DNA of 14,310 nt from IMG/VR virus record IMGVR_UViG_3300025738_000082, positions 1-14,310 of that record. One strand, written 5' to 3'. The position numbers were made by a program, and so were the translations under genes. Under the pieces are notes generated by a model. That model had not been told where the DNA came from, did no database searches, and saw only the letters and a list, made by a program, of their open reading frames with translations. Within the stretch, counting starts at the first letter, position 1; the number at the start of each line of letters is the position of its first letter. This DNA is from a virus. Of the stretch, positions 1 to 13,619 are shown in pieces.

Positions 1-1290
1 TTCCCATTCGGACGGAGTGATATGGCAAAGAAAATCGGCTTTGTCCTCTTCTTGTTTTAAAATTTCTTCGTCAGATATATCAGCATCTAAATCAAAATAT
101 TTTCTTAAACCTTTCGACCATCTAATCAAGTTAACCCCCTGCATTGCTCTAGCATAAAATAAAAATAAAATTCTGTTATCTGTGCGCTCTTCTTTAGTTT
201 CGGCTTCAGTTGCATCACTCAATAAATCCCATGGACTTTTAGAACCTTTACGACCTGTTTTTGTGTTGCCTTTGGTCATTTCGTCAGCCATATCCCAAGT
301 TACTTTTTTACCTGTAGCCGTTGTTAAAAATTCATCATCAGCCCCAAATTTAGAAATATATTCACCTGCAAAAGCACCGTTCTGAATATCCATCCCATAC
401 TCATTAGGACAAGCTAAACCCGACAATTTACAAGCACTTTTCCAACGAGTTAAAATTTTTGTCCATTCATCATGTTGAACTTTTGAAGGCTTACCAGATT
501 TAGTACGAGCCGTTAAAGGTAAAGGCTTTTTGCTAAAAATAATAATATGAAAATGAGGGTGCCAACCATTAGAACCATGACGGATTTCAAATGATCGTAT
601 GTTGCCAATAATGCCAAATTTTTCTTTGAATTTTTTAGCTGGACTTCCTCTCCAAAAACGCTGTAAAGCATCCGAAATTTTTACTTTTAAATCTTCTACT
701 TTATCACCTGAATGATGTGGAGCCGTAAGAGTCAACATAGAAATATTTAGCTTTTCTGCTCTAGCGATATTAAAAGCCATACGCATCTCATTCGATTTCC
801 GTTCTGAAATTTTAGCGGAACAAACGGGACATGTTCTAGAATTTGCACAATTCATCAAGCCAGAATAAAAAGCCTTACCATTAGTTTTTGATTTTACAAT
901 TTGAGTTGTTACACCACTTCTAAAACGGGTACAGCTACAAGTCCTATGATGAACTTCATAGCCTTTTGCATTTACGCGAACGTCTGAGCCGTAGTAACCG
1001 AAAAGAATATTTCTCGCTGTATCTTGTAATTGATAACGGACTTGTCGAGCGAGATTGATTGCTTGCTTCTTTGGTAACACACCAACATTTTGTATTTCAC
1101 CTGTGGAGAAATCCGTAACAGAGAAACTTTTTGATGAGTTTGTTTCGAGGGGGGGGGTTCGTAACTTCGTAGCATTACCGAGAGCGCTCCGCGCTTCTCC
1201 TCCTTGCTCAGGCTTCGCCGTCGTCGTCGCTTGTACGCGCTTTTCTTGGGACTTATCTTGATTAACTGATACTTTATCAATATAATTCAT
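1..1290 (-). CDS. Rolling-circle replication initiator (HUH, pC194/Rep_1-like motifs). Partial: 430 N-terminal codons, 3' end beyond the window.
   Basis: ATG at 1290..1288. My hand translation of the first ~55 codons (MNYIDKVSVNQDKSQEKRVQATTTAKPEQGGEA...LRTPPLETNSS) parallels rep2. The DNA aligns with 7041..8318 with only a 12-nt in-frame insertion near the 5' end. The track lists no rep-frame fragment, consistent with an ORF open to the window edge. Confidence 0.85.
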   Translation of the reverse strand, partial: MNYIDKVSVNQDKSQEKRVQATTTAKPEQGGEARSALGNATKLRTPPLETNSSKSFSVTDFSTGEIQNVGVLPKKQAINLARQVRYQLQDTARNILFGYYGSDVRVNAKGYEVHHRTCSCTRFRSGVTTQIVKSKTNGKAFYSGLMNCANSRTCPVCSAKISERKSNEMRMAFNIARAEKLNISMLTLTAPHHSGDKVEDLKVKISDALQRFWRGSPAKKFKEKFGIIGNIRSFEIRHGSNGWHPHFHIIIFSKKPLPLTARTKSGKPSKVQHDEWTKILTRWKSACKLSGLACPNEYGMDIQNGAFAGEYISKFGADDEFLTTATGKKVTWDMADEMTKGNTKTGRKGSKSPWDLLSDATEAETKEERTDNRILFLFYARAMQGVNLIRWSKGLRKYFDLDADISDEEILKQEEDKADFLCHITPSEWE

Positions 1291-1339
1291 TTGTCTGCTC
1301 TATATCGTCGTGGTTGGTGATTTAAGGCAAAAAGACAAA

Positions 1340-1377
1340 GGGTTGAATGTTTTCGCGGACGTTCAACCCATTTTTTT
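1340..1377. terminator. GC-rich stem-loop with U-tracts on both sides. Bidirectional terminator or attenuator-like, about 50 nt upstream of the rep start.
   Basis: GGGTTGAATGT (1340-1350) pairs with ACGTTCAACCC (1359-1369), 11 bp including one G-U. It is followed by T7 on the plus strand and by TTTGTCTTTTTG on the minus strand. Identical copy at 8369..8398. Confidence 0.5.
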
Positions 1378-1604
1378 GCTCAAAATATAATAATGTATTT
1401 AAAGAACAAAGAGAAGTTTAGCAGGATGGCAAAGGTGAAAATTAAAAATCATTAGTCATTTTGTTTAACTACTGGTTATCAATTAACAGCATTCAGCCCT
1501 CTGATATATTTCTCGCTTAACTGTAAATACTCCCCAAAAATCGCAAGCTAATTTGCTAACTTGAAAACAAAAAAGTTTATATCTGCGATGCTTAAGAAAA
1601 GTAA

Positions 1605-1658
1605 TTGGTACCAAAAACAGTTCACCGGTTTCAATCCTGGAAACAAAAATGGTACCAC
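1605..1658. promoter_or_regulatory. Two GGTACC palindromes (1607-1612, 1651-1656), 44 bp apart. Candidate operator pair between the RHH gene and rep.
   Basis: TTGGTACCAA and ATGGTACCAC. Same pair with the same spacing in unit B (8636, 8680). A degenerate GGTACT lies at 1705-1710. Confidence 0.5.
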
Positions 1659-1708
1659 TAAATTTTACGGCCAACTCCGTTCGTCAGCCTATAGATTTTT
1701 TTTTGGTA

Positions 1709-1978
1709 CTAATCTATAAAAACTGGATTTCTCATAGCAAAATTATGAATTATCGTTTCTGCTTCAGATTTAGCTAACAAAGAATCTTGTAACTCATTAA
1801 CCTCTGCATTTAAATCTTCATGTTTAGATTTCAATAAATCATATCTTTGTTCTAAATCGGCAAACCTTAAAATAACCTGCAAAGCCGCACCACTAGAAGT
1901 TCCAACATTAAAGCGAGATTTTAACTTTTCTATTTCTTCTAAAAACTCTTCTGTATCATTATTAATTTTAACTAACAT
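1709..1978 (-). CDS. Ribbon-helix-helix-like DNA-binding protein with a C-terminal coiled-coil (89 aa). Putative phage regulator.
   Basis: The N-terminus MLVKINNDTEEFLEEIEKLKSRFNVGTSSGAALQVILRF fits a beta-strand, helix, G-x-S loop, helix pattern as in Arc or CopG. The heptad-like C-terminus is shared with unit B (NAEVNELQDSLLAKSEAETIIHNF identical). It has its own promoter and a GGGT RBS. Confidence 0.6.
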   Translation of the reverse strand: MLVKINNDTEEFLEEIEKLKSRFNVGTSSGAALQVILRFADLEQRYDLLKSKHEDLNAEVNELQDSLLAKSEAETIIHNFAMRNPVFID

Positions 1979-2001
1979 AATTTAACCCTTTAATTGATTA
2001 T

Positions 2002-2096
2002 CTGGTACCATTTTAACAGATGCGAACCACAAGTAAAGTTAATTCGGTACCAAAATATCAATTATTTTCCCCCAGGTTATTTTTAATTAGTACCAA
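2002..2096. promoter_or_regulatory. Three phased (T)GGTACC-type palindromes upstream of and overlapping the RHH gene promoter.
   Basis: GGTACC at 2004-2009 and 2046-2051, and AGTACC at 2089-2094. Spacings are 42 and 43 bp. Same layout in unit B. Confidence 0.55.
2004..2037 (-). promoter_or_regulatory. Sigma70-type promoter of the 89-aa RHH gene, with a GGTACC palindrome abutting the -10.
   Basis: On the minus strand: TTTACT (2037-2032), 16-nt spacer, TGtTAAAAT (extended -10; -10 at 2015-2010), then GGTACC immediately after. The unit B equivalent is TTTACA-17-TAAAAT. Confidence 0.5.
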
Positions 2097-2220
2097 AACG
2101 TAAAGCTCTAGCCGTATCAAGAGCATTATCAACACCGATAAAAAACCCCATACAAATACAAACAGCACAGGCAACAAAAATTAATAAATTATCTTTATTA
2201 TCACTCAGAAATTTCTTCAT
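2083..2220 (-). CDS. Small single-pass membrane protein (45 aa), overlapping the zot 3' end.
   Basis: Hand translation: MKKFLSDNKDNLLIFVACAVCICMGFFIGVDNALDTARALRFGTN. A positionally equivalent 42-aa ORF with the same architecture (polar N-terminus plus one TM helix) exists in unit B. It falls below the track length cutoff. Confidence 0.45.
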   Translation of the reverse strand: MKKFLSDNKDNLLIFVACAVCICMGFFIGVDNALDTARALRFGTN

Positions 2221-3550
2221 TATTACTTTCCTTATCATTTAAAAAAGAGGGTGAAACGTCACGTTCAGGTTTCTCATATTTAACTGGAGCAAAAAAAACT
2301 AAACGTGAATTAACACCATCAGACAAACTAACTACAGAATCACTTTTAAAAGAAATCCTATAACCCATAACAACCAAATCAGAACTATTAACCGAAAATT
2401 CATCTGTACCAATATGGACAGAAAAAACATATTCAGCCGTAACCCTTTTACCTAATCTATAAATTTTATTGATACCCGTTAGATAAATAGCATCAGCGCT
2501 ATAGGGCAAAGTTAAAGAACCAACATCCTCAAACAAAGTCTTAGGAGTGACACGACCAACAGGAGAATGAATATCTTTTTGAATATCTTTAGGAGGAACT
2601 TTAAAACCGTTTTGAGATGTTTTATCAAAAACGGGAATGGAGGCAATTTTATTATTTTCGATGTGACTAGTGCGAAAGAAGAATATATAAATAATAAAAA
2701 CGACACAGGCAACAAAAACACCCGCACCAAGTATGATAGATAAAGTAATGGGACTGCCACCCGCTCCAGATTTTGTGTTTTGTCCGGTTGCTGTTGATTT
2801 GTAGATTTTGAATACATCAAGAGGAATTTTCCTATTAGTAACAATGTCGCCTTTTTTCGTTACGGTACCGTTACCACTGGGTAAATGTTCCAAAACTTTA
2901 GGACGTCTTTTAAAATACGGAAAGGGAGCGGAATCCTTTGAAGTATGAGCAAATGCCGCCTCACAAACCGAACGAATAAATCCAGAAACTTCTTTAATAT
3001 CAGGAGTAGCTAAAACAATATCCCAATTATAATGACGGTGACGCATAAACGACTCGCGCAATGTAGGTGGGTATTTTATGTAGTCTCGGTCATCAAAAAT
3101 ACTTAAACCAATATCATCTTCAAACTCTGAAATATCGACCAAAGATTTTATTAATTTTTGTTTTTCATGGTAAAGCGCTTTAACCTCTGGAGGCAATTTA
3201 TCATCCCAAAACCCCTCTGATTTATAATCATAATCAGTAGCTTTAAAACTACGATCATTTGGATAAATATCTTGTATTTCATCAATAAAAATAAAAGCGC
3301 CAATTGGCAACCAATGAAAAAAATTACGTATCAATTCACGACCTAAATCGTTATTTGAAGAGATACGAACTAAACGAGCTGAAGCAGGAAAAACAATATT
3401 CAATTCTCTTGAGATTTCTTCAATCGTCTTTACACCTTGTAAGTTAGTTACGACTAAACGACCAGCCACTAAAGCAGGAAGTAATTCAAACCAACAAACG
3501 GTAGACGATTTATAAGAACCCGGAGCACCATGGAATATTTTCGTAGCCAT
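2201..3550 (-). CDS. zot: Zot / pI-family phage assembly ATPase (449 aa).
   Basis: The N-terminus IFHGAPGSYKSSTVCWFELLPAL (Walker A), FIFIDEIQDIYP (Walker B) and FMRHRHYNWDIVLATPDIKEV follow the Vibrio cholerae Zot sequence as I remember it. It has a central TM helix (ITLSIILGAGVFVACVVFIIYIFFF) and a C-terminal periplasmic domain. Confidence 0.9.
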   Translation of the reverse strand: MATKIFHGAPGSYKSSTVCWFELLPALVAGRLVVTNLQGVKTIEEISRELNIVFPASARLVRISSNNDLGRELIRNFFHWLPIGAFIFIDEIQDIYPNDRSFKATDYDYKSEGFWDDKLPPEVKALYHEKQKLIKSLVDISEFEDDIGLSIFDDRDYIKYPPTLRESFMRHRHYNWDIVLATPDIKEVSGFIRSVCEAAFAHTSKDSAPFPYFKRRPKVLEHLPSGNGTVTKKGDIVTNRKIPLDVFKIYKSTATGQNTKSGAGGSPITLSIILGAGVFVACVVFIIYIFFFRTSHIENNKIASIPVFDKTSQNGFKVPPKDIQKDIHSPVGRVTPKTLFEDVGSLTLPYSADAIYLTGINKIYRLGKRVTAEYVFSVHIGTDEFSVNSSDLVVMGYRISFKSDSVVSLSDGVNSRLVFFAPVKYEKPERDVSPSFLNDKESNNEEISE

Positions 3551-3554
3551 TAGA

Positions 3555-3944
3555 TCACCATTTCATAAAATCAAGAATGTAACGAGTAACAAACGCTTCC
3601 ATAATCAAAGTGAAAGCATCAAAAAAACGAACGTCTATAAGTGTCTGAACTATGTCAGAATCAAGGGAACCAATTGAAGTTTGAATGACATCAACCAAAG
3701 ATAAATTATCAATAAAAGTTGAAGCTATAGTGTAAGCAAACTGACTAAAGAAAATCATTGAAGTAACTTTTGCCAATATAATATATTGCAATAACCACGT
3801 TAAAAAATTCTTTAGAAAAAGCGGAATATCAATTGTTAAATATTCCCACATCGAGCCAAAAAAACTTGCTACAGAATCAGTAAAACCACCTGCAAATGAA
3901 CTGCTAGAAAAGAGCAGCACAAAAATAATAAATAAAATTCTCAT
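3555..3944 (-). CDS. pVI-like minor virion or membrane protein (129 aa from the internal ATG).
   Basis: It lies between the pIII-like and zot genes, as gVI or ace does. It is hydrophobic with multiple TM segments and homologous to unit B 10616..11029. The ATG at 3944 overlaps the pIII stop (TAATG). The upstream part of the track ORF lies inside pIII and has no counterpart in unit B. Confidence 0.6.
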   Translation of the reverse strand: MRILFIIFVLLFSSSSFAGGFTDSVASFFGSMWEYLTIDIPLFLKNFLTWLLQYIILAKVTSMIFFSQFAYTIASTFIDNLSLVDVIQTSIGSLDSDIVQTLIDVRFFDAFTLIMEAFVTRYILDFMKW

Positions 3945-5350
3945 TACATACGCCCTTGAAAAATTATTGATAAGGAAATTAAAGAAGCGAGTGCATACAA
4001 AATCGCACCGATAGAAGCAAAATACTGAGAGAACCGCGACCATGAAATATCATAAGTCCCCTGAGATAAAACAAGATTCGTTTGCTGATAACCACTACCC
4101 GTAACAGTCAAATTAAATTTAGCCATTAAACTAGTTTTATAAGAATTTATATTTTCCTTTAAAGTAATTTCAGCCCCTGCAATTTTTGTGTTTACCTCGG
4201 TTTGGTCAAGAAACGAAGTGATAAAAGAACCTGAGCCGTAACGCGTCAAAGTTCCTGCTCCAGTATTTTCAAGTGAATTAGATTCGATAGCCGCAACAAT
4301 ATTTTCAGAATTAGTAGTTCCTGAAGCCGCACTATTATTAATTGAATTAATCATTCCAGAATCATCAAAACTACCACCAGTGGAACCACCACCAGAGCTA
4401 CTTTGAATAGCGCTTATAACTTCGTCTAATTTGGAAATTGAATTAGTAGAATTAACAGCATCAACAACAGCATTTTTAGCAACAATGGTTTGTTCAGCGT
4501 TTGAATTTCTAAGGTTGATAACCTCGTTTATTAACACATCACCTTGAGTCGTTGTAATACCATCGTTTCCAGTTCCATCAGCCGTTGTTGTTCCATCAGC
4601 TACATAAGGAATATCGGTTGTACTTGTAGGTGTGTAAGCATCACCACAACCAAAAACACAATTTGGGTCAGCAGTATCAGCAACATCACAATCAGCTAAA
4701 TCATTTGGATCGGCAGGATTACATAAACCATCAGGAGCATTAGCAAGTGAGCCGTTTTTATCTCCAGTTGTACCGTCATTACATATAAAATCACAGGATA
4801 AAGTTGAATCACCATTATCAGTAAAATTTGAAGATGTTAAACCATTATGTGAGAAACATTGGTTTTGAGCCATAGTGGTACATTCTTCATTGTTGGCTAT
4901 TGGTTCGGGCTCAGGAGGTGAGCCACATTCGTAAGTATAATCACCACTATTTTCAGGAGTCCATGAAAAATCTTTTAGGTCGACATTAGCAGATTCACAT
5001 TTGTCTTGAGCGATCTCTTGGCAATCATCAAAGTTACAACCTGCCGAACCACCATAATTAAAAGTTATTGTTTTTCTATGGGTACCATTTGAACCAATAA
5101 GAACGGCAATTTTCCCATTTTGCCAAGTGGAAAGCTGAATATATTGATAGCCACTACAATAAGAAGAACCAGACATAACTGAAGTTACAGCCGCAAACAT
5201 TTCATCTTTCGTTCTAAATTTATGGTTCGTTAAAAGAGATTTATTATCTGGATACATTGAACAACTAGTATCAACACCAGTGCCAATTAAATAAGAAGCT
5301 GAAGAACTAAAACTGAAAAGGGTTATAAGCAATAAAAAAATATATTTCAT
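3944..5350 (-). CDS. pIII-like adsorption / minor coat protein (468 aa).
   Basis: Signal peptide MKYIFLLLITLFSFSSSA, Cys-rich N-terminal domains, Gly/Ser/Thr/Asp-rich linkers (SSSGGGSTGGS) and a C-terminal membrane anchor (ASIGAILYALASLISLSIIF). It sits after the coat gene. Confidence 0.7.
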   Translation of the reverse strand: MKYIFLLLITLFSFSSSASYLIGTGVDTSCSMYPDNKSLLTNHKFRTKDEMFAAVTSVMSGSSYCSGYQYIQLSTWQNGKIAVLIGSNGTHRKTITFNYGGSAGCNFDDCQEIAQDKCESANVDLKDFSWTPENSGDYTYECGSPPEPEPIANNEECTTMAQNQCFSHNGLTSSNFTDNGDSTLSCDFICNDGTTGDKNGSLANAPDGLCNPADPNDLADCDVADTADPNCVFGCGDAYTPTSTTDIPYVADGTTTADGTGNDGITTTQGDVLINEVINLRNSNAEQTIVAKNAVVDAVNSTNSISKLDEVISAIQSSSGGGSTGGSFDDSGMINSINNSAASGTTNSENIVAAIESNSLENTGAGTLTRYGSGSFITSFLDQTEVNTKIAGAEITLKENINSYKTSLMAKFNLTVTGSGYQQTNLVLSQGTYDISWSRFSQYFASIGAILYALASLISLSIIFQGRM

Positions 5351-5362
5351 AAGTCACCAAGT

Positions 5363-5389
5363 AAAAAAAAAGCGCCCTATTAAGACGCT
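5363..5389 (-). terminator. Rho-independent terminator or attenuator between the coat gene and the pIII-like gene.
   Basis: Minus strand: AGCGTC-TTAATAG-GGCGCT (6 bp with one G-U) followed by T9. Unit B has a different stem sequence (AGTCTC/GAGGCT) at the same place, also followed by T9. Ff phages carry a terminator after gene VIII. Confidence 0.6.
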
Positions 5390-5460
5390 CTGATACCTGA
5401 TGTAAATCCTTCTATCATTGCGTAATAGAGGCAACAGGCAAACAAAATGGAAATGACCAT
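5380..5460 (-). CDS. 26-aa hydrophobic micro-ORF. Candidate pVII/pIX-type minor virion protein.
   Basis: MVISILFACCLYYAMIEGFTSGIRAS, versus VVLTVLIACTFYYCMVEGFSSGIRVS in unit B (12388..12468). The frame and length are conserved and the substitutions are conservative. It starts 3 nt after the coat stop. Confidence 0.5.
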   Translation of the reverse strand: MVISILFACCLYYAMIEGFTSGIRAS

Positions 5461-5463
5461 TTT

Positions 5464-5664
5464 TTACTTACGGAACCAACCAAGTACAGCATTTACACCG
5501 AAACCAAGGATAGCAATTGCAATTACAGCCGCAATTACAGCAGTTACGTTGCCAGTTCCTTCAGTTGAAGCAGTACCGATTTGAGTTGTTAAGTCAGCCG
5601 CATTAGCACCAACAGAAGCAACAAGAGTAGAACCGACTAAAACTAATTTTTGTGAAGTTTTCAT
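5464..5664 (-). CDS. pVIII-like major coat protein precursor (66 aa from ATG; the track ORF starts 12 nt upstream at TTG).
   Basis: Signal peptide ending ANA|AD. The mature peptide of about 44 aa has an acidic/polar N-terminus, a hydrophobic core (AVIAAVIAIAILGFGV) and a basic C-terminus (WFRK). Confidence 0.8.
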   Translation of the reverse strand: MKTSQKLVLVGSTLVASVGANAADLTTQIGTASTEGTGNVTAVIAAVIAIAILGFGVNAVLGWFRK

Positions 5665-5689
5665 ATTATTTTCCAAATTATTAAGAGTT

Positions 5690-5944
5690 TTATTTACCTA
5701 ACCAGCGCACAACGCGTCCGGCAAAGTGAGAAGTTAAAAAAGCTAAAATTAAAGCCGTTTCAACGATTGCAAAAACCTCAGTGTCAAACGCAAATAAGAC
5801 GCTTAAAAGTTCCTGCATTTGTTGCAATGAACCAGATTGTAAATTTACAAATTCAACCTGCGTCATTAAAACAAATTCGGTACATTCCGTTTCAGCCGCA
5901 ACTTTTAAAAAACCGCTACCATCAGCTACAGCACAAACAGACAT
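5690..5944 (-). CDS. Small membrane protein (84 aa), unknown function. Possibly a minor virion or assembly protein.
   Basis: The C-terminal TM helix plus basic tail (AIVETALILAFLTSHFAGRVVRWLGK) is conserved in unit B ORF 12696..13166. Tightly packed between the ssb-like and coat genes. Confidence 0.55.
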   Translation of the reverse strand: MSVCAVADGSGFLKVAAETECTEFVLMTQVEFVNLQSGSLQQMQELLSVLFAFDTEVFAIVETALILAFLTSHFAGRVVRWLGK

Positions 5945-5949
5945 TATTA

Positions 5950-6264
5950 TTAAGCCGCCTTTCTAGGTGAGAAACCGATTATTTCCATCGTTACGCCACC
6001 ACCTTTTACAGCCGTTTTTACATCAACATCAACAAGACCAGGAACTAAACCGGATGATGCTAAAGAACGAGCTAAAACGTTATCTTGTAAAACAGACATT
6101 TTTACTTTCGCATGTTGCTGTCCTACGTCGATACGATCACTAGATATTTCGTCAGCTACGTTTTCATCAAGAATAATTGCGCTTGCATAAACTATTTTTT
6201 CACCGCTATTAGAATCGACCATGTTGCCTGCACTAATGCGTAAAATATTCATTTGTACTTTCAT
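5950..6264 (-). CDS. Putative ssDNA-binding protein (gV position), 104 aa from the ATG at 6264.
   Basis: First gene of the structural operon. Its size and the beta-rich composition I judge by eye suit a gV-type protein. It matches unit B in length and closely in sequence (MKVQ...RISAGNMVD...IDVGQQHAKVKMSV). The GTG start in the track (6282) lies inside the leader repeats and has no counterpart in unit B. The function is inferred from position only. Confidence 0.5.
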   Translation of the reverse strand: MKVQMNILRISAGNMVDSNSGEKIVYASAIILDENVADEISSDRIDVGQQHAKVKMSVLQDNVLARSLASSGLVPGLVDVDVKTAVKGGGVTMEIIGFSPRKAA

Positions 6265-6274
6265 TTTTTTCCCC

Positions 6275-6298
6275 TGAATCACTGAATCACTAAATCAC
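6275..6298. repeat. Three tandem 8-bp repeats, TGAATCAC TGAATCAC TAAATCAC, in the 5' leader of the structural operon.
   Basis: Direct reading. They lie between the predicted transcription start and the RBS (GGGGAAAAAAAATG) of the ssb-like gene. Conserved in unit B at 13497..13520 with one change (TAAACCAC). Confidence 0.7.
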
Positions 6299-6308
6299 TT
6301 TGAACCAG

Positions 6309-6338
6309 ATTCTAGTTGCAAGTGAGATCTTGTGTCAA
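6309..6338 (-). promoter_or_regulatory. Strong sigma70-type promoter of the structural operon.
   Basis: Minus strand: TTGACA (6338-6333), 18-nt spacer, TAGAAT (6314-6309). Identical hexamers and spacing in unit B. An imperfect 10-bp inverted repeat, CACTTGCAAC-N9-GTTCAAAGTG (6296..6324), is centred on the -10. Confidence 0.65.
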
Positions 6339-6366
6339 TAGTTATTTGTATCAAAAGCTATATAAT
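6335..6366 (+). promoter_or_regulatory. Candidate promoter of the plus-strand 59-aa gene, back-to-back with the structural promoter.
   Basis: Perfect TATAAT at 6361-6366 (13583-13588 in unit B). The -35 is only weak (conserved TCAATAGTT) and overlaps the minus-strand TTGACA. Confidence 0.4.
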
Positions 6367-6400
6367 TAGAAATGAACTAGCTAAAAAGAGAATGGAAATT

Positions 6401-6580
6401 ATGAAAACTGAAAGTATTAGAGCAAGGATTGAAGATGCGAAAATCTTGAAACAGGAATGCAGGGTTATGTCAGCAGAACTACAAAGACAGGTGCCTGTAA
6501 GTGAATTGGTAAATGGATTAATGGAGTACCTAGAAAGTGCCAAAGAAAAAATTAAAAATACTACTGGTGAAGTTAGCTAA
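6401..6580 (+). CDS. RHH (CopG/Arc-like) small DNA-binding protein, 59 aa, transcribed divergently from the structural operon.
   Basis: MKTESIRARIEDAKILKQECRVMSAELQRQVPVSELVNGLMEYLESAKE fits a beta-strand, helixA, loop, helixB pattern (compare the CopG pattern ...SrSelireAlreyLe). The ATG at 6401 corresponds to the unit B ATG at 13620, which has an AAGGAA RBS. The upstream GTG extension in the track is not conserved in unit B. Confidence 0.65.
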   Translation: MKTESIRARIEDAKILKQECRVMSAELQRQVPVSELVNGLMEYLESAKEKIKNTTGEVS

Positions 6581-6585
6581 GAAAG

Positions 6586-6640
6586 AAAAAATCAGCTACA
6601 GAAGATTAAAGAAAAATCTTGAAAAATAGCTGATTTTTTT
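6586..6640. terminator. Nested hairpin flanked by an A-tract and a T-tract. Bidirectional terminator between the convergent rep2 and the 59-aa gene.
   Basis: AATCAGCTA (6590-6598) pairs with TAGCTGATT (6627-6635). An inner AAGATT/AATCTT stem is present. A6 lies upstream and T7 downstream, so it reads as a terminator on either strand. Confidence 0.6.
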
Positions 6641-6644
6641 GAAT

Positions 6645-6668
6645 GTTCGGGAAGCCCCCACCCCGAAC
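6645..6668 (-). terminator. GC-rich hairpin directly after the rep2 stop codons.
   Basis: GTTCGGG (6645-6651) pairs with CCCGAAC (6662-6668). The same stem with a different loop lies at 13873..13893 after rep3. Confidence 0.45.
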
Positions 6669-6671
6669 TTA

Positions 6672-8318
6672 TTACTCTAGTTCTTTTCTTCTTTCCATAT
6701 AATGCTTATTAAGTTCAGCGCTTTTAGCTCTTTTTTCTTCATCTCTTTTTGCACCTACCCAATTAAAAGATCGCTCGTCAGTTTCTACTGGAGTTGTTAA
6801 ATAGTTTTGATGTTGAGGCTTAACCTTATGAATAATTTCGTGCCTAGTTTCAGTCGTCGAATATTCATTAACTTCTGGCATATCTACATCTGGATGATTT
6901 TTTCTATCCATAAATTCAAAGTAAAATTCTTCAAAACTCATAAAAGAATATGCAGGATAAAACAAACGAGCTACAGCTTCAGAACCACCATTTTCAGCAA
7001 GTTCTAAAAGAATATGACGTTTTTTATTTTTAATAATATATTCCCATTCGGACGGAGTGATATGGCAAAGAAAATCGGCTTTGTCCTCTTCTTGTTTTAA
7101 AATTTCTTCGTCAGATACATCAGCATCTAAATCAAAATATTTTCTTAAACCTTTCGACCATCTAATCAAGTTAACCCCCTGCATTGCTCTAGCATAAAAT
7201 AAAAATAAAATTCTGTTGTCTGTACGCTCTTCTTTGGTTTCAGCTTCGGTTGCATCACTCAATAGATCCCAAGGACTTTTAGAGCCTTTTCGACCTGTTT
7301 TTGTGTTGCCTTTGGTCATTTCGTCAGCCATATCCCAAGTAACTTTTTTACCTGTAGCCGTTGTTAAAAATTCATCATCAGACCCAAATTTAGAGATATA
7401 TTCACCTGCAAAAGCACCGTTTTGAATATCCATTCCGTACTCATTAGGACAATCTAAATCAGACAATTTACAAGCACTTTTCCAACGGGTTAAAAGTTTC
7501 GTCCATTCTTCAGATTGATTTTTTGATGGTTTGCCAGATTTACTGCGAGCCGTTAAAGGTAAGGGCTTTTTACTAAAAATAATAATATGAAAATGAGGGT
7601 GCCAACCATTAGAACCATGACGAACTTCAAAAGATCGTATGTTACCAATAACACCAAATCTATCTTTAAAACTTTTAGCCGCCTTTCCTCTCCAGAAGCG
7701 CTGTAAAGCATCAGAAATCTTAACTTTTAAATCTTCTATTTTATCGCCTGAATTATGTGGAGCGGTAAGGGTTAACATAGAAATATTGAGTTTTTCTGCA
7801 CGAGCAATATTAAAAGCCATACGCATTTCATTCGATTTTCTTTCGGATATTTTTGCGGAGCAAACGGGACATGTTCTAGAATTTGCGCAATTCATCAAGC
7901 CAGAATAAAAAGCCTTACCATTAGTTTTTGATTTTACAATTTGAGTTGTTACACCACTCCTGAAACGGGTGCAACTGCAAGTTCTATGATGAACTTCATA
8001 GCCTTTAGCATTTACGCGAACGTCAGAGCCATAGTAACCGAAAAGAATATTTCTCGCGGTATCTTGTAATTGATATCGAACTTGTCGAGCGAGGTTAATT
8101 GCTTGCTTCTTTGGTAACACACCAATATTTTCAATTTCACCCGTGGTGAAATCCGTTACAGAGTAACTTTTTGAGGAGTCGGTTTTAAGGGGGGGTGTTC
8201 GTAACTTCGTAGCATTACCGAGAGCGCCCCGCGCTTCTCCTCCTTGCTCAGGCTTCGCCGTCGTCGTCGCTTGTGCGCACCCTACTTGATTAACTGCTGT
8301 TTTATCAATATAATTCAT
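6672..8318 (-). CDS. Rolling-circle replication initiator (HUH endonuclease, pC194/Rep_1-like motif set), 548 aa.
   Basis: Motif I LTLTAPH, motif II GWHPHFHIIIF (HUH), motif III with a candidate catalytic Tyr GEYISKFG. An upstream Cys cluster is present (HHRTCSC ... CANSRTCPVC). A C-terminal extension of about 170 aa has no motif I recognise. Confidence 0.9.
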   Translation of the reverse strand: MNYIDKTAVNQVGCAQATTTAKPEQGGEARGALGNATKLRTPPLKTDSSKSYSVTDFTTGEIENIGVLPKKQAINLARQVRYQLQDTARNILFGYYGSDVRVNAKGYEVHHRTCSCTRFRSGVTTQIVKSKTNGKAFYSGLMNCANSRTCPVCSAKISERKSNEMRMAFNIARAEKLNISMLTLTAPHNSGDKIEDLKVKISDALQRFWRGKAAKSFKDRFGVIGNIRSFEVRHGSNGWHPHFHIIIFSKKPLPLTARSKSGKPSKNQSEEWTKLLTRWKSACKLSDLDCPNEYGMDIQNGAFAGEYISKFGSDDEFLTTATGKKVTWDMADEMTKGNTKTGRKGSKSPWDLLSDATEAETKEERTDNRILFLFYARAMQGVNLIRWSKGLRKYFDLDADVSDEEILKQEEDKADFLCHITPSEWEYIIKNKKRHILLELAENGGSEAVARLFYPAYSFMSFEEFYFEFMDRKNHPDVDMPEVNEYSTTETRHEIIHKVKPQHQNYLTTPVETDERSFNWVGAKRDEEKRAKSAELNKHYMERRKELE

Positions 8319-8368
8319 TTGTCTGCTCTAAATCGTCGTGGTTGGTGGTTTAAAAGCAAAAAGACAAA

Positions 8369-8407
8369 GGGTTGAATGTTTTCGCGGACGTTCAACCCAT
8401 TTTTTTG
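8369..8407. terminator. GC-rich stem-loop with flanking U-tracts upstream of rep2 (copy of 1340..1377).
   Basis: GGGTTGAATGT...ACGTTCAACCC at 8369..8398, then a T-run. Confidence 0.5.
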
Positions 8408-8633
8408 CTCAAAATATAGTAATGTATTTTAAGAAAAAAGAGAAGTTTAGCAGGATGGCAATGGAGGAAATTAAAAAAATTTAGTTATTGTGTTTAACTA
8501 GTTGTTATCAATTTACGCCAATCAGCCCTCTGATATATTTCTCGCTTACCTGTAAATACTCCCCAAAAATCGCAAGCTAATTTGCTAACTTGAAAACAAA
8601 GAAGTTTATATCTGCGATGCTTAAAAAAAATAA

Positions 8634-8687
8634 TTGGTACCAAAAACAGCTTACCGGTTTCAATCCTGGAAACAAAAGTGGTACCAA
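8634..8687. promoter_or_regulatory. Two GGTACC palindromes (8636-8641, 8680-8685), 44 bp apart.
   Basis: Direct reading. Same spacing as the unit A pair. Confidence 0.5.
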
Positions 8688-8692
8688 AAAAA

Positions 8693-8956
8693 TCAAAAAT
8701 CAGGTGTTCTCATAGAAAAATTGTGGATAATGGTTTCTGCTTCCGACTTAGCCAATAAACTATCTTGCAATTCATTAACTTCAGCATTCAAATCTTCATA
8801 CTTAGATTTTAAAGAATCGTAACGCTCCTCTAATTCACAAAATCTCAGGATTGACTGAAGGGCGGCACCACTAGAAGTTGAAACATTAAAACGAACCTTT
8901 AACCTTTCAACCTGCTCTGAAAACTCTTCTGTACTATTGTTTATTTTAATTAACAT
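8693..8956 (-). CDS. RHH-like DNA-binding protein with a C-terminal coiled-coil (87 aa). Homolog of 1709..1978.
   Basis: MLIKINNSTEEFSEQVERLKVRFNVSTSSGAALQSILRF plus a conserved C-terminal helix. GGAG RBS and its own promoter. Confidence 0.6.
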   Translation of the reverse strand: MLIKINNSTEEFSEQVERLKVRFNVSTSSGAALQSILRFCELEERYDSLKSKYEDLNAEVNELQDSLLAKSEAETIIHNFSMRTPDF

Positions 8957-8977
8957 TTTATAACTCCATAAGTGAAT

Positions 8978-9072
8978 ATGGTACCATTTTAAGCTTATAA
9001 ATTAAAAATGTAAAGCAAAATGGTACCAAAATATGAGTTATTTTCCCCCAGGTTATTTTTAAATGGTACCGA
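8978..9072. promoter_or_regulatory. Three phased GGTACC palindromes plus the RHH gene promoter (unit B).
   Basis: GGTACC at 8980-8985, 9022-9027 and 9065-9070 (spacings 42 and 43 bp). Minus-strand promoter TTTACA (9014-9009), 17-nt spacer, TAAAAT (8991-8986), with GGTACC directly downstream of the -10. Confidence 0.55.
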
Positions 9073-9201
9073 TTAGTGGTTATACACCTCAGAAACTGCT
9101 GAAAAAGAATGTGATACTCCAAAGTAATAACCAATAGCAATGCAAACAACAAAACCAAGAACCAAACCAATATTACCAACTTCTTTATTTAAACTTTTCA
9201 T
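9073..9201 (-). CDS. Small single-pass membrane protein (42 aa) downstream of zot.
   Basis: Hand translation: MKSLNKEVGNIGLVLGFVVCIAIGYYFGVSHSFSAVSEVYNH. Same position and architecture as unit A 2083..2220. Preferred over the out-of-frame 73-aa track ORF 8958..9179, which runs through the conserved operator/promoter block. Confidence 0.45.
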   Translation of the reverse strand: MKSLNKEVGNIGLVLGFVVCIAIGYYFGVSHSFSAVSEVYNH

Positions 9202-9215
9202 ATTAAAAACCTACA

Positions 9216-10601
9216 TTAACCAAGTGAAGCTACTAGAGAAGAATCCCTAACAGCGCTATTAAGTTCATCATTCTGAACGGGTGTTTCATCTCTTTTTTTC
9301 AATTCACAATAGACAAAATTTGAAGAATGTTCGGCTCGCAATTCAACCAAACAATCAGACTTATAAAAAACCTTATAACCCAAAGAATACAAATCATCTG
9401 AAGTTATAGAGTGCCTGTAACCGTCTACAAGAAGATTAAAAATATAATGACGCTTTATATTGTTTTTACTCAAACTCTCGGTTACAAGACCCGTTAAGTG
9501 CATAGATTGAGCGTTATAAGGTAGGTTTACATTATTATCATTCGCAAACAGCTCCGAAACAGAACCATGACGAGCAACAAAAGAAGTATTTTCCCCATTA
9601 TCCTTAATAGGAAGTGGAGAGTTCTCTTTATTATTAACTTTATTTTTCGGTAAAGTTTTCTGATTATCAACTTTTTGAATATTAGGTATTTTATCACCCG
9701 ATAACACTTCTTTAGTATCATCACCATCAGTGAAAAAATTGATAAGAAAAACGATATAACCGACAACAAAAGCGAGACCGATTTTGTGGCGCCAATCAAA
9801 AGGTGAACCACCTGCGCCTGATTTAGTATTTTTTCCCGTTGCAGTGGACTTATAAAGTTTAAAAACATCAAGAGGTATTTTCCTATGAGTTGTGATATCG
9901 CCTTTTTTAACAGACATACCATTTTCTTTTGGTGGGTGTTCTAATACGCGAGGTCTACGCTTAAAATATTTAATCGGGATTGCATCTTTTGAAACGTGAG
10001 CATAACCCTTTTCGGTTGCACTACGAACAAAGCCAATAACCTCCTTAATATCTGGAGTTGCAAAGATAATATCCCAGTTGTAATGTCTATGCCTCATGAA
10101 GCATTCACGCATAGTTCTTGGGTATCTTAAATATCCCCGTTCATCAAAAAGTGACTCGCCAACATCATCAAGATATTCATTCAAATCAACATTATCTTTA
10201 ATTTCTCTCTGCTCTTTATGGTAAAGCTCGACAAGCTCAACAGGCAATTGAGAGTCAAAATAACCTTCTCCTTTATTGTCGTAATCATGAGCTTTGAAAG
10301 TTTTATCATTTGGATAAACATCTTGGACTTCATCAATAAAAATAAATGCCCCGATAGGCATCCATTGATAAAAATTACGCATCAAATTTAAACCGCGGTC
10401 ATGACCTATAGAAATACGAAAAATTTTTGCTGTTGCAGGAAAAATCTCACCTAATTCAAATTGAATTTCATCTATAGTTTTTAAGCCCTGTAAATTAGTA
10501 ATAACCACACGACCTTGACGTAAAGCATCAAGAAGACGAAACCATAAAACAGTAGAGGACTTGTAAGAACCTGGAGGACCATGGTAAATCTCAGTAGACA
10601 T
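9216..10601 (-). CDS. zot: Zot / pI-family phage assembly ATPase (461 aa).
   Basis: IYHGPPGSYKSSTVLWFRLLDAL (Walker A), FIFIDEVQDVYP (Walker B), FMRHRHYNWDIIFATPDIKEV, and a central TM helix. The C-terminal domain is strongly diverged from unit A. Confidence 0.9.
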   Translation of the reverse strand: MSTEIYHGPPGSYKSSTVLWFRLLDALRQGRVVITNLQGLKTIDEIQFELGEIFPATAKIFRISIGHDRGLNLMRNFYQWMPIGAFIFIDEVQDVYPNDKTFKAHDYDNKGEGYFDSQLPVELVELYHKEQREIKDNVDLNEYLDDVGESLFDERGYLRYPRTMRECFMRHRHYNWDIIFATPDIKEVIGFVRSATEKGYAHVSKDAIPIKYFKRRPRVLEHPPKENGMSVKKGDITTHRKIPLDVFKLYKSTATGKNTKSGAGGSPFDWRHKIGLAFVVGYIVFLINFFTDGDDTKEVLSGDKIPNIQKVDNQKTLPKNKVNNKENSPLPIKDNGENTSFVARHGSVSELFANDNNVNLPYNAQSMHLTGLVTESLSKNNIKRHYIFNLLVDGYRHSITSDDLYSLGYKVFYKSDCLVELRAEHSSNFVYCELKKRDETPVQNDELNSAVRDSSLVASLG

Positions 10602-10615
10602 CTAAAACCCCTTAA

Positions 10616-11029
10616 TTAAAAAGTAATCATGTTATAAACAAAACGTGTAATAACAGCCTCGATAAGGATGGTTAGACCCTCAAAAAAACCAACGTCAACA
10701 AGGACAGAGCGAACATCAGAAGGTAAATCAGCAACGGCTAAATTAATCATTGAATTAAGTTCTACAAGATCCAGAAAAGAAGTAGCTATCTGACTTGCAA
10801 ACTCAATAGCATGTAAAAACATTGTGTATTTTAAAAAAATAAGCCAAGAAATTAACCATACAAAAAAGTTAGTAATTGCAGTTGGTATTTCAACGGTTAA
10901 AAAAAACCAAATACCATTAAAAAAACTAGCTACATCTTCAAAGAAACCTGAAAAACTAATAGAAGTATCTGAAGCAAAAACAGAAAAAGAGAAGAGCATA
11001 AAAATAGAAAAAGTAATTAATCGAATCAT
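10616..11029 (-). CDS. pVI-like minor virion or membrane protein (137 aa).
   Basis: Lies between the pIII-like and zot genes. Multi-TM and homologous to 3555..3944. Its ATG overlaps the pIII stop (ATGA). Confidence 0.6.
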   Translation of the reverse strand: MIRLITFSIFMLFSFSVFASDTSISFSGFFEDVASFFNGIWFFLTVEIPTAITNFFVWLISWLIFLKYTMFLHAIEFASQIATSFLDLVELNSMINLAVADLPSDVRSVLVDVGFFEGLTILIEAVITRFVYNMITF

Positions 11030-12360
11030 GATTTAACACCCCCTAGAATTATAAAAAAAGCACCTAGCGTAGCTAGCATTATTATTATGGATTTAAGGGA
11101 TAAATAATTTTCTGCAAAACGAGAAATTGAAATATTATGAGTCCCCCAGCCACCTGCTAAAGTTAAATTCTCAACGGAATAAGAACTCGTAGCATTAACG
11201 GAAAAATAAGACATTAAATTGTTTTTTGTTGCTGTTAATAGTTCAGAAACTTGACCTTGCTTTACTAAAGTTTGAGCATCTATATCTGATATAGCTTGAG
11301 CATTAAACAATGTATGCAATGGGGTTTGAACATCACCTAAGGATTGAGGGGTGTAAGTAATTCCATCCATAGGATTTTCAGCAGCACTTCCAGAACCAAC
11401 ACCACTCAAATTGTTAATAGCATCAACAATATTTCCATCATAAAAAGGAGCTTGAGCATTTATTGCATCAATGGTTGAATTACCAGAATCCAAGATAGCT
11501 TGTGCAACATCATCTGTTTTCTCAACAATTGTCTGGTTAGTACTGACAGTATTATCAACTAAAACTTTTTCGTTTTTATTTCTAGATTTTATAACTTCAT
11601 TAATTAAAGTATCACCTTGTAAAGCTGATAAAGGAGCAGTGGGGTCAGCCGTTCCATCAGGGGTATAACCTGTATCAGTTGTAGGATCAGGAGTTCCTGT
11701 TGTTGGAGGTAAAACACTGGTGCCAGTATTGCCAACTATTACACTATCGTCTTGAGGTTCATCACAGTAATTATTAAATAATGTACATTCTTCAGGTTCG
11801 GTTGCGGCTGTTCCGTCGTTACAAGTTCCTGAGCATGTTTGATTTCCGTTACCATCGTCTTCATAGCTTGAGCTAGCAAAACCTAAATTTGAAGAGCATT
11901 GTTGTATTACCTGTTCTTCACATTGTTTAACAGGGTCGACAGGTGTGTCACAAGAATAGGAAAAATCTTCAGGGCTATTAAATTGAAAAGCAGCTATCGT
12001 CTTATTTTGAGAAGTACAGTCGAATTTTGCTAATGCGAAACAAGTAGGAGAATCTTTACAATCAGCATCATTATTACTCGTCACTCTGTCAAACTGTCCA
12101 TATCTTTGTTGATTACCATAAGCCATCCAAGAAGTTTTTATGTATTTTATAGAACCATCTTCATATTTTTTAGTTGAATAAATAAAGTAACTAGTAACAG
12201 TGTGAGCACCATCTTTTTGAATAGACTGAAGATAAGCAAAACACATATCAGCAGAATTTCCGCAATAAGTGCCTCGATAATTATAAGAACTAGATGAAGC
12301 GCTAAAACTTAAAGCGATAAGAGATAAAAAAAACAATACTTTATAAATCACAATTAACAC
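11026..12360 (-). CDS. pIII-like adsorption / minor coat protein (about 441-444 aa; GTG start at 12360 or, more likely, 12351).
   Basis: Signal peptide (IYKVLFFLSLIALSFSA), a Cys pattern shared with unit A pIII, a Thr/Pro/Gly/Asp-rich linker, the conserved GDTLINEVI segment and a C-terminal anchor. There is no ATG. AGGTG sits 6 nt before the GTG at 12351. Confidence 0.7.
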   Translation of the reverse strand: MLIVIYKVLFFLSLIALSFSASSSSYNYRGTYCGNSADMCFAYLQSIQKDGAHTVTSYFIYSTKKYEDGSIKYIKTSWMAYGNQQRYGQFDRVTSNNDADCKDSPTCFALAKFDCTSQNKTIAAFQFNSPEDFSYSCDTPVDPVKQCEEQVIQQCSSNLGFASSSYEDDGNGNQTCSGTCNDGTAATEPEECTLFNNYCDEPQDDSVIVGNTGTSVLPPTTGTPDPTTDTGYTPDGTADPTAPLSALQGDTLINEVIKSRNKNEKVLVDNTVSTNQTIVEKTDDVAQAILDSGNSTIDAINAQAPFYDGNIVDAINNLSGVGSGSAAENPMDGITYTPQSLGDVQTPLHTLFNAQAISDIDAQTLVKQGQVSELLTATKNNLMSYFSVNATSSYSVENLTLAGGWGTHNISISRFAENYLSLKSIIIMLATLGAFFIILGGVKS

Positions 12361-12372
12361 CTAAAAAAAAAG

Positions 12373-12397
12373 GAAAAAAAAAGCCTCCTAAGAGACT
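12373..12397 (-). terminator. Rho-independent terminator or attenuator between the coat and pIII-like genes (unit B).
   Basis: Minus strand: AGTCTC-TTAG-GAGGCT followed by T9 CC T9. Confidence 0.6.
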
Positions 12398-12468
12398 CTA
12401 ATTCCAGAACTAAAACCCTCTACCATGCAATAGTAAAAAGTGCAGGCTATTAGTACTGTTAAGACCAC
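12388..12468 (-). CDS. 26-aa hydrophobic micro-ORF. Homolog of 5380..5460.
   Basis: (GTG)VLTVLIACTFYYCMVEGFSSGIRVS. The GTG start overlaps the coat TAG stop by 1 nt. Conserved with unit A. Confidence 0.45.
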   Translation of the reverse strand: MVLTVLIACTFYYCMVEGFSSGIRVS

Positions 12469-12680
12469 TACTTTTTAAACCAACCAAGTAATGAGCCAAT
12501 GCCAAAGCCTAAAATAGCTAAGGAAATAACAGCCGCTATAACCGCTGTATTGTTTGCTGTTGCTTCAGTTGAAGCGGTTGCAATTGCTGTGGTTTGATCA
12601 GAAGCAAAAGCTAAAGAAGTTGTACCCATTGCAGTTAATGCCGCTACTGTTTTACCTTTCCAAGTTAAAGTTTTATTCAT
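12468..12680 (-). CDS. pVIII-like major coat protein precursor (70 aa).
   Basis: Signal peptide ending AFA|SD. The mature peptide has a polar N-terminus, a hydrophobic core (AVIAAVISLAILGFGI) and a basic tail (WFKK). Confidence 0.8.
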   Translation of the reverse strand: MNKTLTWKGKTVAALTAMGTTSLAFASDQTTAIATASTEATANNTAVIAAVISLAILGFGIGSLLGWFKK

Positions 12681-12695
12681 TTTAAGACCTATATA

Positions 12696-13166
12696 TTAAG
12701 AGTGTTTCCCCATCGTACGAACCATGCGACCCGTAAAATAAGACGTTAAAAAGGCGATAATAAAAGCGCCTTCAATTATTCCAAAAATCTCTGGGTCAAA
12801 AGTAAATAATGTCACCAGTAATTTCTGCAATCCTTCAGTGTCAGTTGAGGCAGACTTTTCAGATAAAACGCCAAAATCATAAGTACTCATGACAATATGA
12901 CCTGAACAAGTTTGCGGAGTCTCAACAGTTCCACTAGGGCTATCAACTAAATAAATGTGGTAATCACCTGCGTCCCTTAAAACAGTTCTGTCAAAATAAA
13001 TACATTCGGCAGAATATGAATCAAAAGAAACAAAAACAATTAACAACAAAAAAAGGCAAACAGAACGCTTTTTATAAACGGTAGAATTGCGAGGATTATC
13101 AATATAATAATCTCTCCAAAAAGAGGTAATATCCTCTTCTTGCTCAATATTTTGTTGATAGCTCAT
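12696..13166 (-). CDS. Membrane protein (156 aa). Its C-terminal half is homologous to unit A ORF 5690..5944, and it has an extra N-terminal segment of about 70 aa.
   Basis: Shared C-terminal TM helix plus basic tail (IIEGAFIIAFLTSYFTGRMVRTMGK). The N-terminal extension contains a second hydrophobic segment (VCLFLLLIVFVSF). Confidence 0.55.
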   Translation of the reverse strand: MSYQQNIEQEEDITSFWRDYYIDNPRNSTVYKKRSVCLFLLLIVFVSFDSYSAECIYFDRTVLRDAGDYHIYLVDSPSGTVETPQTCSGHIVMSTYDFGVLSEKSASTDTEGLQKLLVTLFTFDPEIFGIIEGAFIIAFLTSYFTGRMVRTMGKHS

Positions 13167-13170
13167 TAAA

Positions 13171-13485
13171 TTAAGCTACTTTTTTCGGTTCAAAACCGAT
13201 AATTTCCATCGTAATGCCACCTGCTTTTACGGATGTTTTTACTTCACAAGTAACAACTCCCGGGACTTGACCGGACGAAGCTAAAGAACGAGCTAAAACG
13301 TTGTCATTTTCAACAGACATTTTTACTTTTGCGTGTTGCTGTCCTACGTCAATTCTGTCAATTGATATTTCATCTGCTACGTCTTCATCAAGGATAATTG
13401 CACTTGCATAAACAATTTTGTCACCGCTTTTAGTGTCGACCATATTGCCTGCACTAATGCGTAAAACTTCCAATTGTACTTTCAT
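13171..13485 (-). CDS. Putative ssDNA-binding protein (gV position), 104 aa.
   Basis: First gene after the structural promoter. Close homolog of 5950..6264. Function inferred from position and size only. Confidence 0.5.
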   Translation of the reverse strand: MKVQLEVLRISAGNMVDTKSGDKIVYASAIILDEDVADEISIDRIDVGQQHAKVKMSVENDNVLARSLASSGQVPGVVTCEVKTSVKAGGITMEIIGFEPKKVA

Positions 13486-13496
13486 CTTTTTTCTCC

Positions 13497-13520
13497 TGAA
13501 TCACTGAATCACTAAACCAC
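13497..13520. repeat. Three tandem 8-bp repeats, TGAATCAC TGAATCAC TAAACCAC, in the operon leader (unit B).
   Basis: Direct reading. Same position as 6275..6298. Confidence 0.7.
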
Positions 13521-13530
13521 TTTGAACCAG

Positions 13531-13560: not shown

Positions 13561-13619
13561 TAGTTTTTTGAAACAAAGAGGATATAATTAGGAATGAACT
13601 AGCGAAAAGGAATGGAAAA

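Follow-up and report, generated by a model that had tools for sequence, protein, structure and literature searches.

What do three short tandem repeats do between the promoter and the first structural gene of a filamentous phage? Filamentous phages influence the behavior of many Gram-negative bacteria, and to our knowledge their control circuits have been worked out in detail for few of them, mainly Ff, CTXphi, Pf, and SW1. The stretch of DNA analysed here in its entirety (a whole contig of 14,310 bases, hereafter the window) consists of two tandem filamentous phage (inovirus) genome units, related but non-identical, in each of which three 8-bp repeats precede the first gene of the structural operon. 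An earlier note, made from the sequence alone, had likened these repeats to the heptad operators of the ribbon-helix-helix (RHH) repressor omega, and had offered as an alternative an mRNA operator for a single-stranded DNA-binding (ssb) protein. The reading that we favor, with a probability of roughly 0.6, is that the three units would form a cooperative operator array of the omega/ParG/MetJ kind, with a divergently encoded 59-aa protein as the binder. This repressor-array architecture is familiar from plasmids and has not yet been described in this uncultured phage group.

Genome Layout and Locus Sample

The main genes of the window all lie on the minus strand. In each unit the gene order is headed by the gene of a Rep_1-type replication protein (6672-8318, minus strand), which is followed by the genes of a 104-aa protein, small coat-like proteins, a pIII-like protein, a DUF2523 protein (pVI-like), and a Zot-type assembly ATPase. 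Even the nearest cultured relatives are remote, the Rep protein being 29-33% identical to those of Pseudomonas phage PMBT54 and a swan-associated inovirus, and the closest Zot proteins belong to Vibrio inoviruses (~32% identity). A comparison of the region with the phage collection at the DNA level gave no match, and scans of one genome per bacterial species gave no relatives of the ssb-like protein or of the 59-aa regulator.

The first gene of the operon encodes the 104-aa protein (5950-6264, minus strand) and occupies the position of the filamentous-phage ssDNA-binding protein gene; it is on account of this gene position that the product is treated here as a putative ssb-like protein. It had no match in Pfam, PHROG, or PDB, and none to the ssDBP of PMBT54 in hhalign.

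The two genome units (W1 and W2 for units 1 and 2) extend roughly from 1 to 7040 and from 7041 to 14310. Their ssb-like proteins are 80% identical and their 59-aa regulators 88%; an 84-aa ORF in one unit is replaced by a 156-aa ORF at the same place in the other, the pIII-like proteins are very different, and a rep gene is split over the two window ends. The two-unit window has the appearance of a circular heterodimer, of two prophages in tandem, or of a chimera from assembly. Since W1 and W2 have common operator units, they would be expected to cross-regulate each other.

Two hairpins (6590-6640 and 6646-6668; unit 2: about 13860-13895) lie between the convergent ends of the regulator gene and rep. 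The first has the form AATCAGCTA...TAGCTGATT with a T-run after it and resembles a terminator for the 59-aa regulator gene. The second, GTTCGGG...CCCGAAC, directly follows the rep stop codon, and its stem is kept in both units while its loop differs. This hairpin region also gave a weak, sub-threshold Rfam match to Chlorobi-1 (E 0.039).

For the comparative analysis the locus sample was made up of the contigs of 28 metagenomic ssb-like homologues and of three loci added via the small regulator. The related loci are designated by L-numbers, and as homologous sequences they are non-independent samples. Their gene order is kept: rep comes first, then a small gene of opposite orientation, and then the ssb-like gene.

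The Repeat Array and Its Promoter

The array of unit 1 comprises three tandem 8-bp units at 6275-6298, which read TGAATCAC TGAATCAC TAAATCAC on the plus strand and GTGATTTA GTGATTCA GTGATTCA on the gene strand. As had been claimed from the sequence, it is present in both genome units: the array of unit 2 (13497-13520; TGAATCAC TGAATCAC TAAACCAC on the plus strand) differs by a single base, substituted in the unit nearest the promoter (gene strand: GTGGTTTA). Tandem Repeats Finder confirmed the coordinates of both arrays (6274-6299, period 8, 3.2 copies, 94% matches; 13496-13521, period 8, 3.2 copies, 88% matches). A threefold tandem repeat with a period of 7-9 and at most one mismatch was absent from all 300 windows simulated with a first-order Markov model (0/300); the real window contains exactly one such repeat, the array at 6275-6298.

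Each unit consists of a TCAC core and a 4-bp A/T-rich spacer. The AATCACT that had been pointed out in every repeat, at an 8-bp period, is borne out by the sequence, and it forms perfect 5'-WATCACW-3' heptads at 6277-6283, 6285-6291, and 6293-6299 with one extra base between neighbours.

A promoter scan identified a near-consensus sigma-70 promoter for the operon of the ssb-like and virion genes at 6309-6338 (minus strand; -35 TTGACA at 6338-6333, 18-nt spacer, -10 TAGAAT at 6314-6309; 11/12 consensus matches), and we infer a transcription start near 6301, which places the array at about +4 to +27. Read along the gene strand, the order is TTGACA-18 nt-TAGAAT, ctggttcaaa, the array, GGGG, and seven A, the last of which is the A of the start codon, then TG. 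The RBS (GGGG, 6274-6271) directly adjoins the last repeat and is followed by the ATG at 6264-6262 (6262-6274 in all, minus strand), in agreement with the placement between predicted start and RBS given in the earlier note. The promoter of unit 2 has the same organization (13531-13560, minus strand; TTGACA at 13560-13555, 18 nt, TAGAAT at 13536-13531), and the TTGACA is kept at the operon promoter in all group A and group B relatives.

A lone fourth unit is present in the promoter spacer at 6321-6327 (TCTCACT on the gene strand), in the orientation opposite to that of the array, and is a possible additional operator sub-site. A TCAC or GTGA unit occurs at this spacer position in W1, W2, L010, L011, L002, L014, L029, and L030. 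The regulator gene has a candidate -10 (TATAAT, 6361-6366, plus strand) with a weak -35, back-to-back with the operon promoter; it was read from the sequence and was missed by the promoter scan. The corresponding gene-strand ATTATA is kept in most group A relatives and partly in group B. The leader of the regulator gene also contains an inverted hexamer AACTAG (6370-6387, plus strand: GAACTAGC), kept as GCTAGTTC in group A relatives, and the same hexamer is found at the -10 of the operon (6309-6319: CAACTAGAAT); the pair may be a coincidence or a second regulatory site.

The leader RNA folds no better than shuffled sequence (z-scores +0.7 and +2.0), and no Rfam family was found above threshold on it. 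These results bear on the possibility that the Rep_1-type rolling-circle initiator binds the repeats as iterons, or that they serve replication or packaging in some other way and overlap the leader by chance. The array does lie ~370 bp downstream of rep, and rolling-circle origins can hold initiator-binding direct repeats, as described for the bind locus of pMV158 RepB. We nevertheless regard such a replication role as quite improbable: the units are always located between the -10 and the RBS though Rep lengths vary (456-553 aa), the array flips in relatives (see below) while a packaging signal or a minus-strand origin is strand-specific, and neither a hairpin nor a nick-site-like motif accompanies the weakly folding array. 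Upstream of rep no GTGATT cluster was found.

Selection on the Array

Among W1, W2, and L009 the array shows 0-1 differences in 24 positions. Over the same three sequences the synonymous divergence is 0.41-0.52 in the ssb-like gene and 0.49-0.57 in the 59-aa regulator gene on the other side of the array, and the binomial probability of the observed array conservation at the synonymous rate is 2e-8 to 6e-5. With 0-1/24 differences between flanks that have diverged by 41-57% at synonymous sites, the array must be considered as being under purifying selection. Compared with L010 and L011 it shows 3-4 differences, far fewer than neutrality would predict. Conservation of the adjoining promoter is similar to that of the array, so the constraint applies to the promoter-leader as a whole rather than to the repeats alone, and conservation by itself cannot separate an operator from other promoter-leader functions. 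The only unit that is invariant across W1, W2, L009, L010, and L011 is the RBS-proximal one.

The same divergence values weigh on the notion that the repeat, as a tract prone to slippage, has no specific function or none beyond varying the length of the leader. An example of length variation does exist in the sample, where L024 has two copies of a 13-bp unit and the near-identical L023 one. In W1, W2, and L009, however, both the copy number and the sequence of the repeats are constant at ~50% synonymous divergence, and we consider mere slippage extremely improbable. The 13-bp leader unit is TTTGTGTCACTTG (L024:~470-500), and the two loci encode the same ssb-like protein.

Number, Period, and Orientation of the Units in Related Loci

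In 17 related loci the words most enriched at -75 to -9 of the first operon gene were TCAC-containing 5-mers, which were 10-15 times more frequent there than in the remainder of these loci. The earlier note had proposed a survey of repeat number and period in related phages; in the relatives examined, TCAC-core units occupy the same promoter-proximal place with a period of 8 or 7 bp and in 2-5 copies. The consensus of the units reads T-R-A-A-TCAC-T for group A and C-A-W-R-TCAC-A for group B.

Three 8-bp units are found in W1, W2, and L009. L010-L013 have three units of which two are degenerate; in L010 and L011 two of the three lack GTGA (GCGATTTA, ATGAATCA). L004 has three 8-bp units of the TTGTNAC type. 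The arrays of group B (L018-L021) are built from unspaced 7-bp heptads of the ATCAC, GTCAC, and GTAAC types, with three to five heptads (TTGTGAT, ATGTGAT, TTGTTAC) in L018, L020, and L021, and with the same three heptad types on the other strand in L019. L002, L014-L016, and L029 lack a tandem array and combine a spacer unit with two inverted units at the start site. A shared unit thus occurs in several arrangements, of which the tandem triple is one, and this form is neither universal nor obligatory. The absence of the repeats from close relatives that keep the regulators had been put forward as evidence against a regulatory role; the tandem triple is indeed missing from L002, L014, L015, and L029, but the units themselves are kept there in rearranged form.

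The orientation of the units varies as well. The coding strand of L030 carries AATCACTGAATCACT, the exact reverse complement of the window array, the array of L031 is likewise flipped relative to the gene, and L019 has already been mentioned. In L030 the array is located at about +22 to +38, past the normal footprint of the polymerase. On a smaller scale, a clustered 6-base replacement in the promoter spacer (GATCTCACT -> TGTGACAGT; L010:2900-3000 versus L011:2490-2592) flips a TCAC unit between two loci with a synonymous divergence of 0.03 in ssb, and could represent an operator or immunity variant. Because arrays flip relative to the gene, recognition of duplex DNA is favored over an mRNA or single-strand signal. 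Inversion would abolish a signal carried by the transcript or by the packaged strand, but is compatible with a dimeric protein that reads duplex DNA, as known from omega heptads and ParG boxes.

This result is central for the alternative in which the repeats act as a translational operator in the mRNA leader, bound by the ssb-like protein or by another RNA-binding protein. There are precedents, as pV of Ff represses via the gene II mRNA and gp32 of T4 via its own leader. The repeats adjoin the RBS within the predicted 5' UTR, an unstructured leader would suit a cooperative single-strand binder, and the invariance of the RBS-proximal unit in W1, W2, L009, L010, and L011 would also fit. In L030, L031, and L019, however, the inverted array would read AAUCAC in the RNA instead of GUGAUU, one unit lies in the untranscribed promoter spacer, and no similarity of the 104-aa protein to an ssDNA-binding protein could be detected. 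In L029 the regulator and the units are kept while the first operon gene is unrelated, which argues against autoregulation by the ssb-like protein. Taken together, the flips in L019, L030, and L031, the first gene of L029, and the positional nature of the ssb identification make an mRNA operator modelled on Ff pV, the alternative of the earlier note, unlikely.

Orientation also weighs against the proposal that the units tune expression with no phage repressor involved, either as targets of a host factor or as stand-by sites for the ribosome. GUGAU can pair with the AUCAC in the 3' tail of 16S rRNA, GTGAT is part of an extended Shine-Dalgarno sequence (the RBS of group B is AAGGTGAT), and TGTGA is a CRP half-site. 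Flipped arrays lose the rRNA complementarity, direct repeats of 7-8 bp misfit the inverted TGTGA-N6-TCACA geometry of CRP, and the constant pairing of the units with one phage gene would be left unexplained. We hold this proposal to be very improbable; as specific candidates, ribosome stand-by sites were rejected since arrays flip, and CRP half-sites and DnaA boxes were rejected on geometry. The preferred reading remains a double-stranded operator for a phage-encoded protein.

Several observations concern loci at the margin of the sample. The L022-L024 group has a different divergent regulator of 85-95 aa with weak Arc-like/RHH_4 matches. Its -35 is overlapped by a 20-bp palindrome (TTGCATC-N6-GATGCAA), which in L022 occurs without a TCAC unit. 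A pattern scan of viral contigs with AATCACTRAATCACT returned mostly chance matches, and L030 was the only related locus. Two unrelated viral contigs carry longer arrays of this same 8-bp unit, TAAATCAC x8 in L056:36-106 (contig of 8.3 kb) and AGTGATTT x5 in L035:1149-1190 (177 kb), and no homologue of the phage proteins was found near either of them.

The Small Divergent Protein

The proposed repressor gene (labelled RHH1; 6401-6580, plus strand) is divergent from the operon and its product starts with MKTESIRARIEDA. Its copy in unit 2 (13620-13799, plus strand) is 88% identical at the protein level, with an identical N-terminal MKTESIRAR. The 59-aa gene adjoins the units in every locus and is under strong purifying selection as measured by pN/pS (0.03-0.12 at a pS of about 0.5; 0.03-0.10 among W1, W2, and L009). 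The family consists of about 24 clusters at 50% identity, all with 51-88 residues and all unannotated, and its N-terminus is nearly invariant, K-T-(K/E)-(S/T)-(I/V)-R. The regulators of group B are 18-25% identical and align without gaps except for a 2-residue insertion near the C-terminus, with T-(I/V)-R at the same place. Downstream of the regulator and on its strand, group B has a second conserved ORF of 44 aa (MKERTIELDGGYKAK...LGFG; L018:2025-2156, L019:986-1117, L020:2030-2161, L021:757-888).

Searches with the 59-aa protein in Pfam, NCBIfam, PHROGs, and PDB (phmmer and profile) gave no meaningful match and no RHH chain, and hhalign of alignment A4 against omega gave a probability of 1.7%. 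Structure prediction from an alignment of 13 close sequences yielded a plain all-helical hairpin, for which no Foldseek match was found. AF2 prediction from 31 diverse sequences yielded an extended segment at residues 1-9 followed by helices at residues 10-27 and 33-56 (pLDDT 90, pTM 0.65), and as the deeper alignment changed the N-terminus the 13-sequence model was not relied on. The predicted topology of the 31-sequence model is RHH monomer-like, and family membership is not established by sequence. A strand leading into a helix cap is compatible with the alternating S5-I6-R7-A8-R9-I10 and the conserved D12-A13. Foldseek matches in the PDB were all non-significant (E 3-8) and included the RHH proteins ParD2 (TM 0.51-0.55) and NikR. 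Among the predicted viral structures of BFVD, the best matches were to proteins annotated as inovirus regulators: an entry of phiAFP1, a filamentous phage of Alteromonas, named 'putative regulator' (TM 0.83-0.87), and then an entry of CTXphi named 'RstR' (TMq 0.84).

The earlier note had counted two RHH-like proteins per phage as possible binders. The second, an 87-89-aa protein encoded on the minus strand (1709-1978 and 8693-8956), resembles RHH proteins at its N-terminus (MLVKINN), continues with two helices, and ends in a coiled-coil-like tail. This protein was rejected as the binder since it is confined to the window-type phage and is missing from L009, which has an identical array, as well as from L010, L014, and L015; the 59-aa protein, which is always adjacent to the units, was retained. 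No TCAC array was found upstream of rep or of the 89-aa gene, which is placed where PMBT54 has its omega-like ORF13. As to the proposal of a heptad-type DNA operator for a small RHH-type regulator, the operator half is supported by units that are conserved, recurrent, and found in either orientation, while the assignment of the regulator to the RHH family is not established.

Proposed Mode of Action

In the mechanism that we propose, the units would serve as transcriptional operator sub-sites on the double-stranded replicative form. Dimers of the 59-aa protein would bind one per unit, reading the TCAC core and cooperating with their neighbours, and together they would coat the DNA from about +4 to +27 of the strong promoter of the ssb-like, virion, and assembly genes. 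The coat might extend to the lone unit in the promoter spacer and would hinder the binding of RNA polymerase or its escape from the promoter. The outcome would be that phage protein production is held down and that immunity is conferred against phages with the same units. Binding, its stoichiometry, and repression as the effect, as opposed to activation, are what we infer.

The locus is thereby a candidate for a compact switch in an uncultured, marine-type lineage, composed of one protein of ~60 residues and three 8-bp units and separate from replication. The switch would act on the virion operon. A further and more tentative idea, which we think doubtful, is that an unannotated family of ~60-residue regulators, so far found only in uncultured inoviruses, has reached the TCAC-heptad code of omega, either independently or via undetectable homology, and that spacing, number, and orientation of the units evolve fast together with the protein. 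Local flips of units, as between L010 and L011, may on this view be operator mutations that alter immunity or virion output. If that were the case, the related loci would constitute a natural series from which the encoding of dimer-to-dimer spacing in repressors of this sort could be learned, and the system would be a second kind of filamentous-phage switch, which acts on the virion operon and not on rep. Since period, copy number, and orientation vary naturally among the loci, these provide test cases for the polymerisation of a small dimeric repressor on DNA.

Comparison with Known Systems

Omega of the inc18 plasmid pSM19035 binds unspaced WATCACW heptads in either orientation, with T29 contacting the central G-C pair (PMC2441792). 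The heptad is matched perfectly (AATCACT) in each window unit, and the occurrence of either orientation is common to both systems. The 7-bp operators of omega are unspaced like the group B arrays, whereas the window heptads are spaced by one base. The N-terminal strand of omega, T29-V30-R31 (checked against 1IRQ), resembles the (S/T)-(I/V)-R of the 59-aa protein, and T29 and R31 are paralleled by its (S/T)-x-R motif, which is a resemblance and not a test. The differences are that the window array is located downstream of the -10, that the 59-aa protein has no sequence homology to omega (hhalign 1.7%, no Pfam match) and a first helix about 7 residues longer, and that omega belongs to Gram-positive plasmids while the host of the window phage is probably Gram-negative. 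A ParA/delta-type partner was not found in the window, in which the sole ATPase is the Zot-type assembly protein. Membership of the omega sequence family is not supported; the likeness lies in the heptad sequence and in the probable mode of working.

By architecture the closest known system is that of ParG from plasmid TP228, with the O_F operator and the parH centromere, where one dimer binds per ACTC box at an 8-bp period, the boxes are coated cooperatively, and inversions and degenerate boxes are tolerated (PMC3130281). Like O_F/parH, the window array has boxes with a 4-bp core, 4-bp A/T-rich spacers, and mixed orientations, and overlaps a promoter. It differs in its core (TCAC versus ACTC) and in having 3 units, plus one in the spacer, versus 8-20 boxes; the window is moreover from a phage, there is no ParA-type partner, and the proteins have no detectable sequence similarity.

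Adjacent 8-bp units as in the window array are also typical of MetJ. The metbox is the palindromic AGACGTCT, unlike the window unit, and MetJ differs further in that it needs SAM as a co-repressor and controls a chromosomal regulon. MetJ binds adjacent metboxes of 8 bp in promoter regions with one small repressor dimer per unit (PMC2775130). With both the metboxes and the ParG boxes at 8 bp, the 8-bp period of the window is no departure from RHH practice.

Within filamentous phages, the compact regulatory region ig-2 of CTXphi contains several operator sites, and RstR of this phage, like FpsR of SW1, is a divergently encoded repressor (PMC4762005). Both act on the rep promoter, which drives the co-transcription of all genes, and FpsR is described as a helix-turn-helix protein (PMC4762005). 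The window shares with them the filamentous phage background and a small, in its case putative, repressor gene that is divergent from the controlled genes. It departs from them in that its regulator gene is situated between rep and the ssb-like gene, and the regulator would control only the downstream operon, via tandem units. The RstR-type arrangement of CTXphi at the rep promoter was not encountered, the regulator and the units both being downstream of rep.

The cultured inovirus PMBT54 (Rep 29% identical) has the same order of rep, a divergent small gene, which is annotated with a MatP_C domain, four 8-bp repeats, and ssb. Its repeats, four tandem TCGTGTTW units (L025:1765-1795; OR047306.1), are located ~55 bp upstream of ssb and beside the divergent ORF2, and they differ from the window units in sequence, just as the small protein is unrelated in sequence to the 59-aa regulator. 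The published description of PMBT54 makes no mention of the repeats; the operator reading would offer a function for them as well as for the unannotated family of the 59-aa protein. The repeats of PMBT54 fall inside ORF3, annotated as a 'hypothetical protein', which may be spurious.
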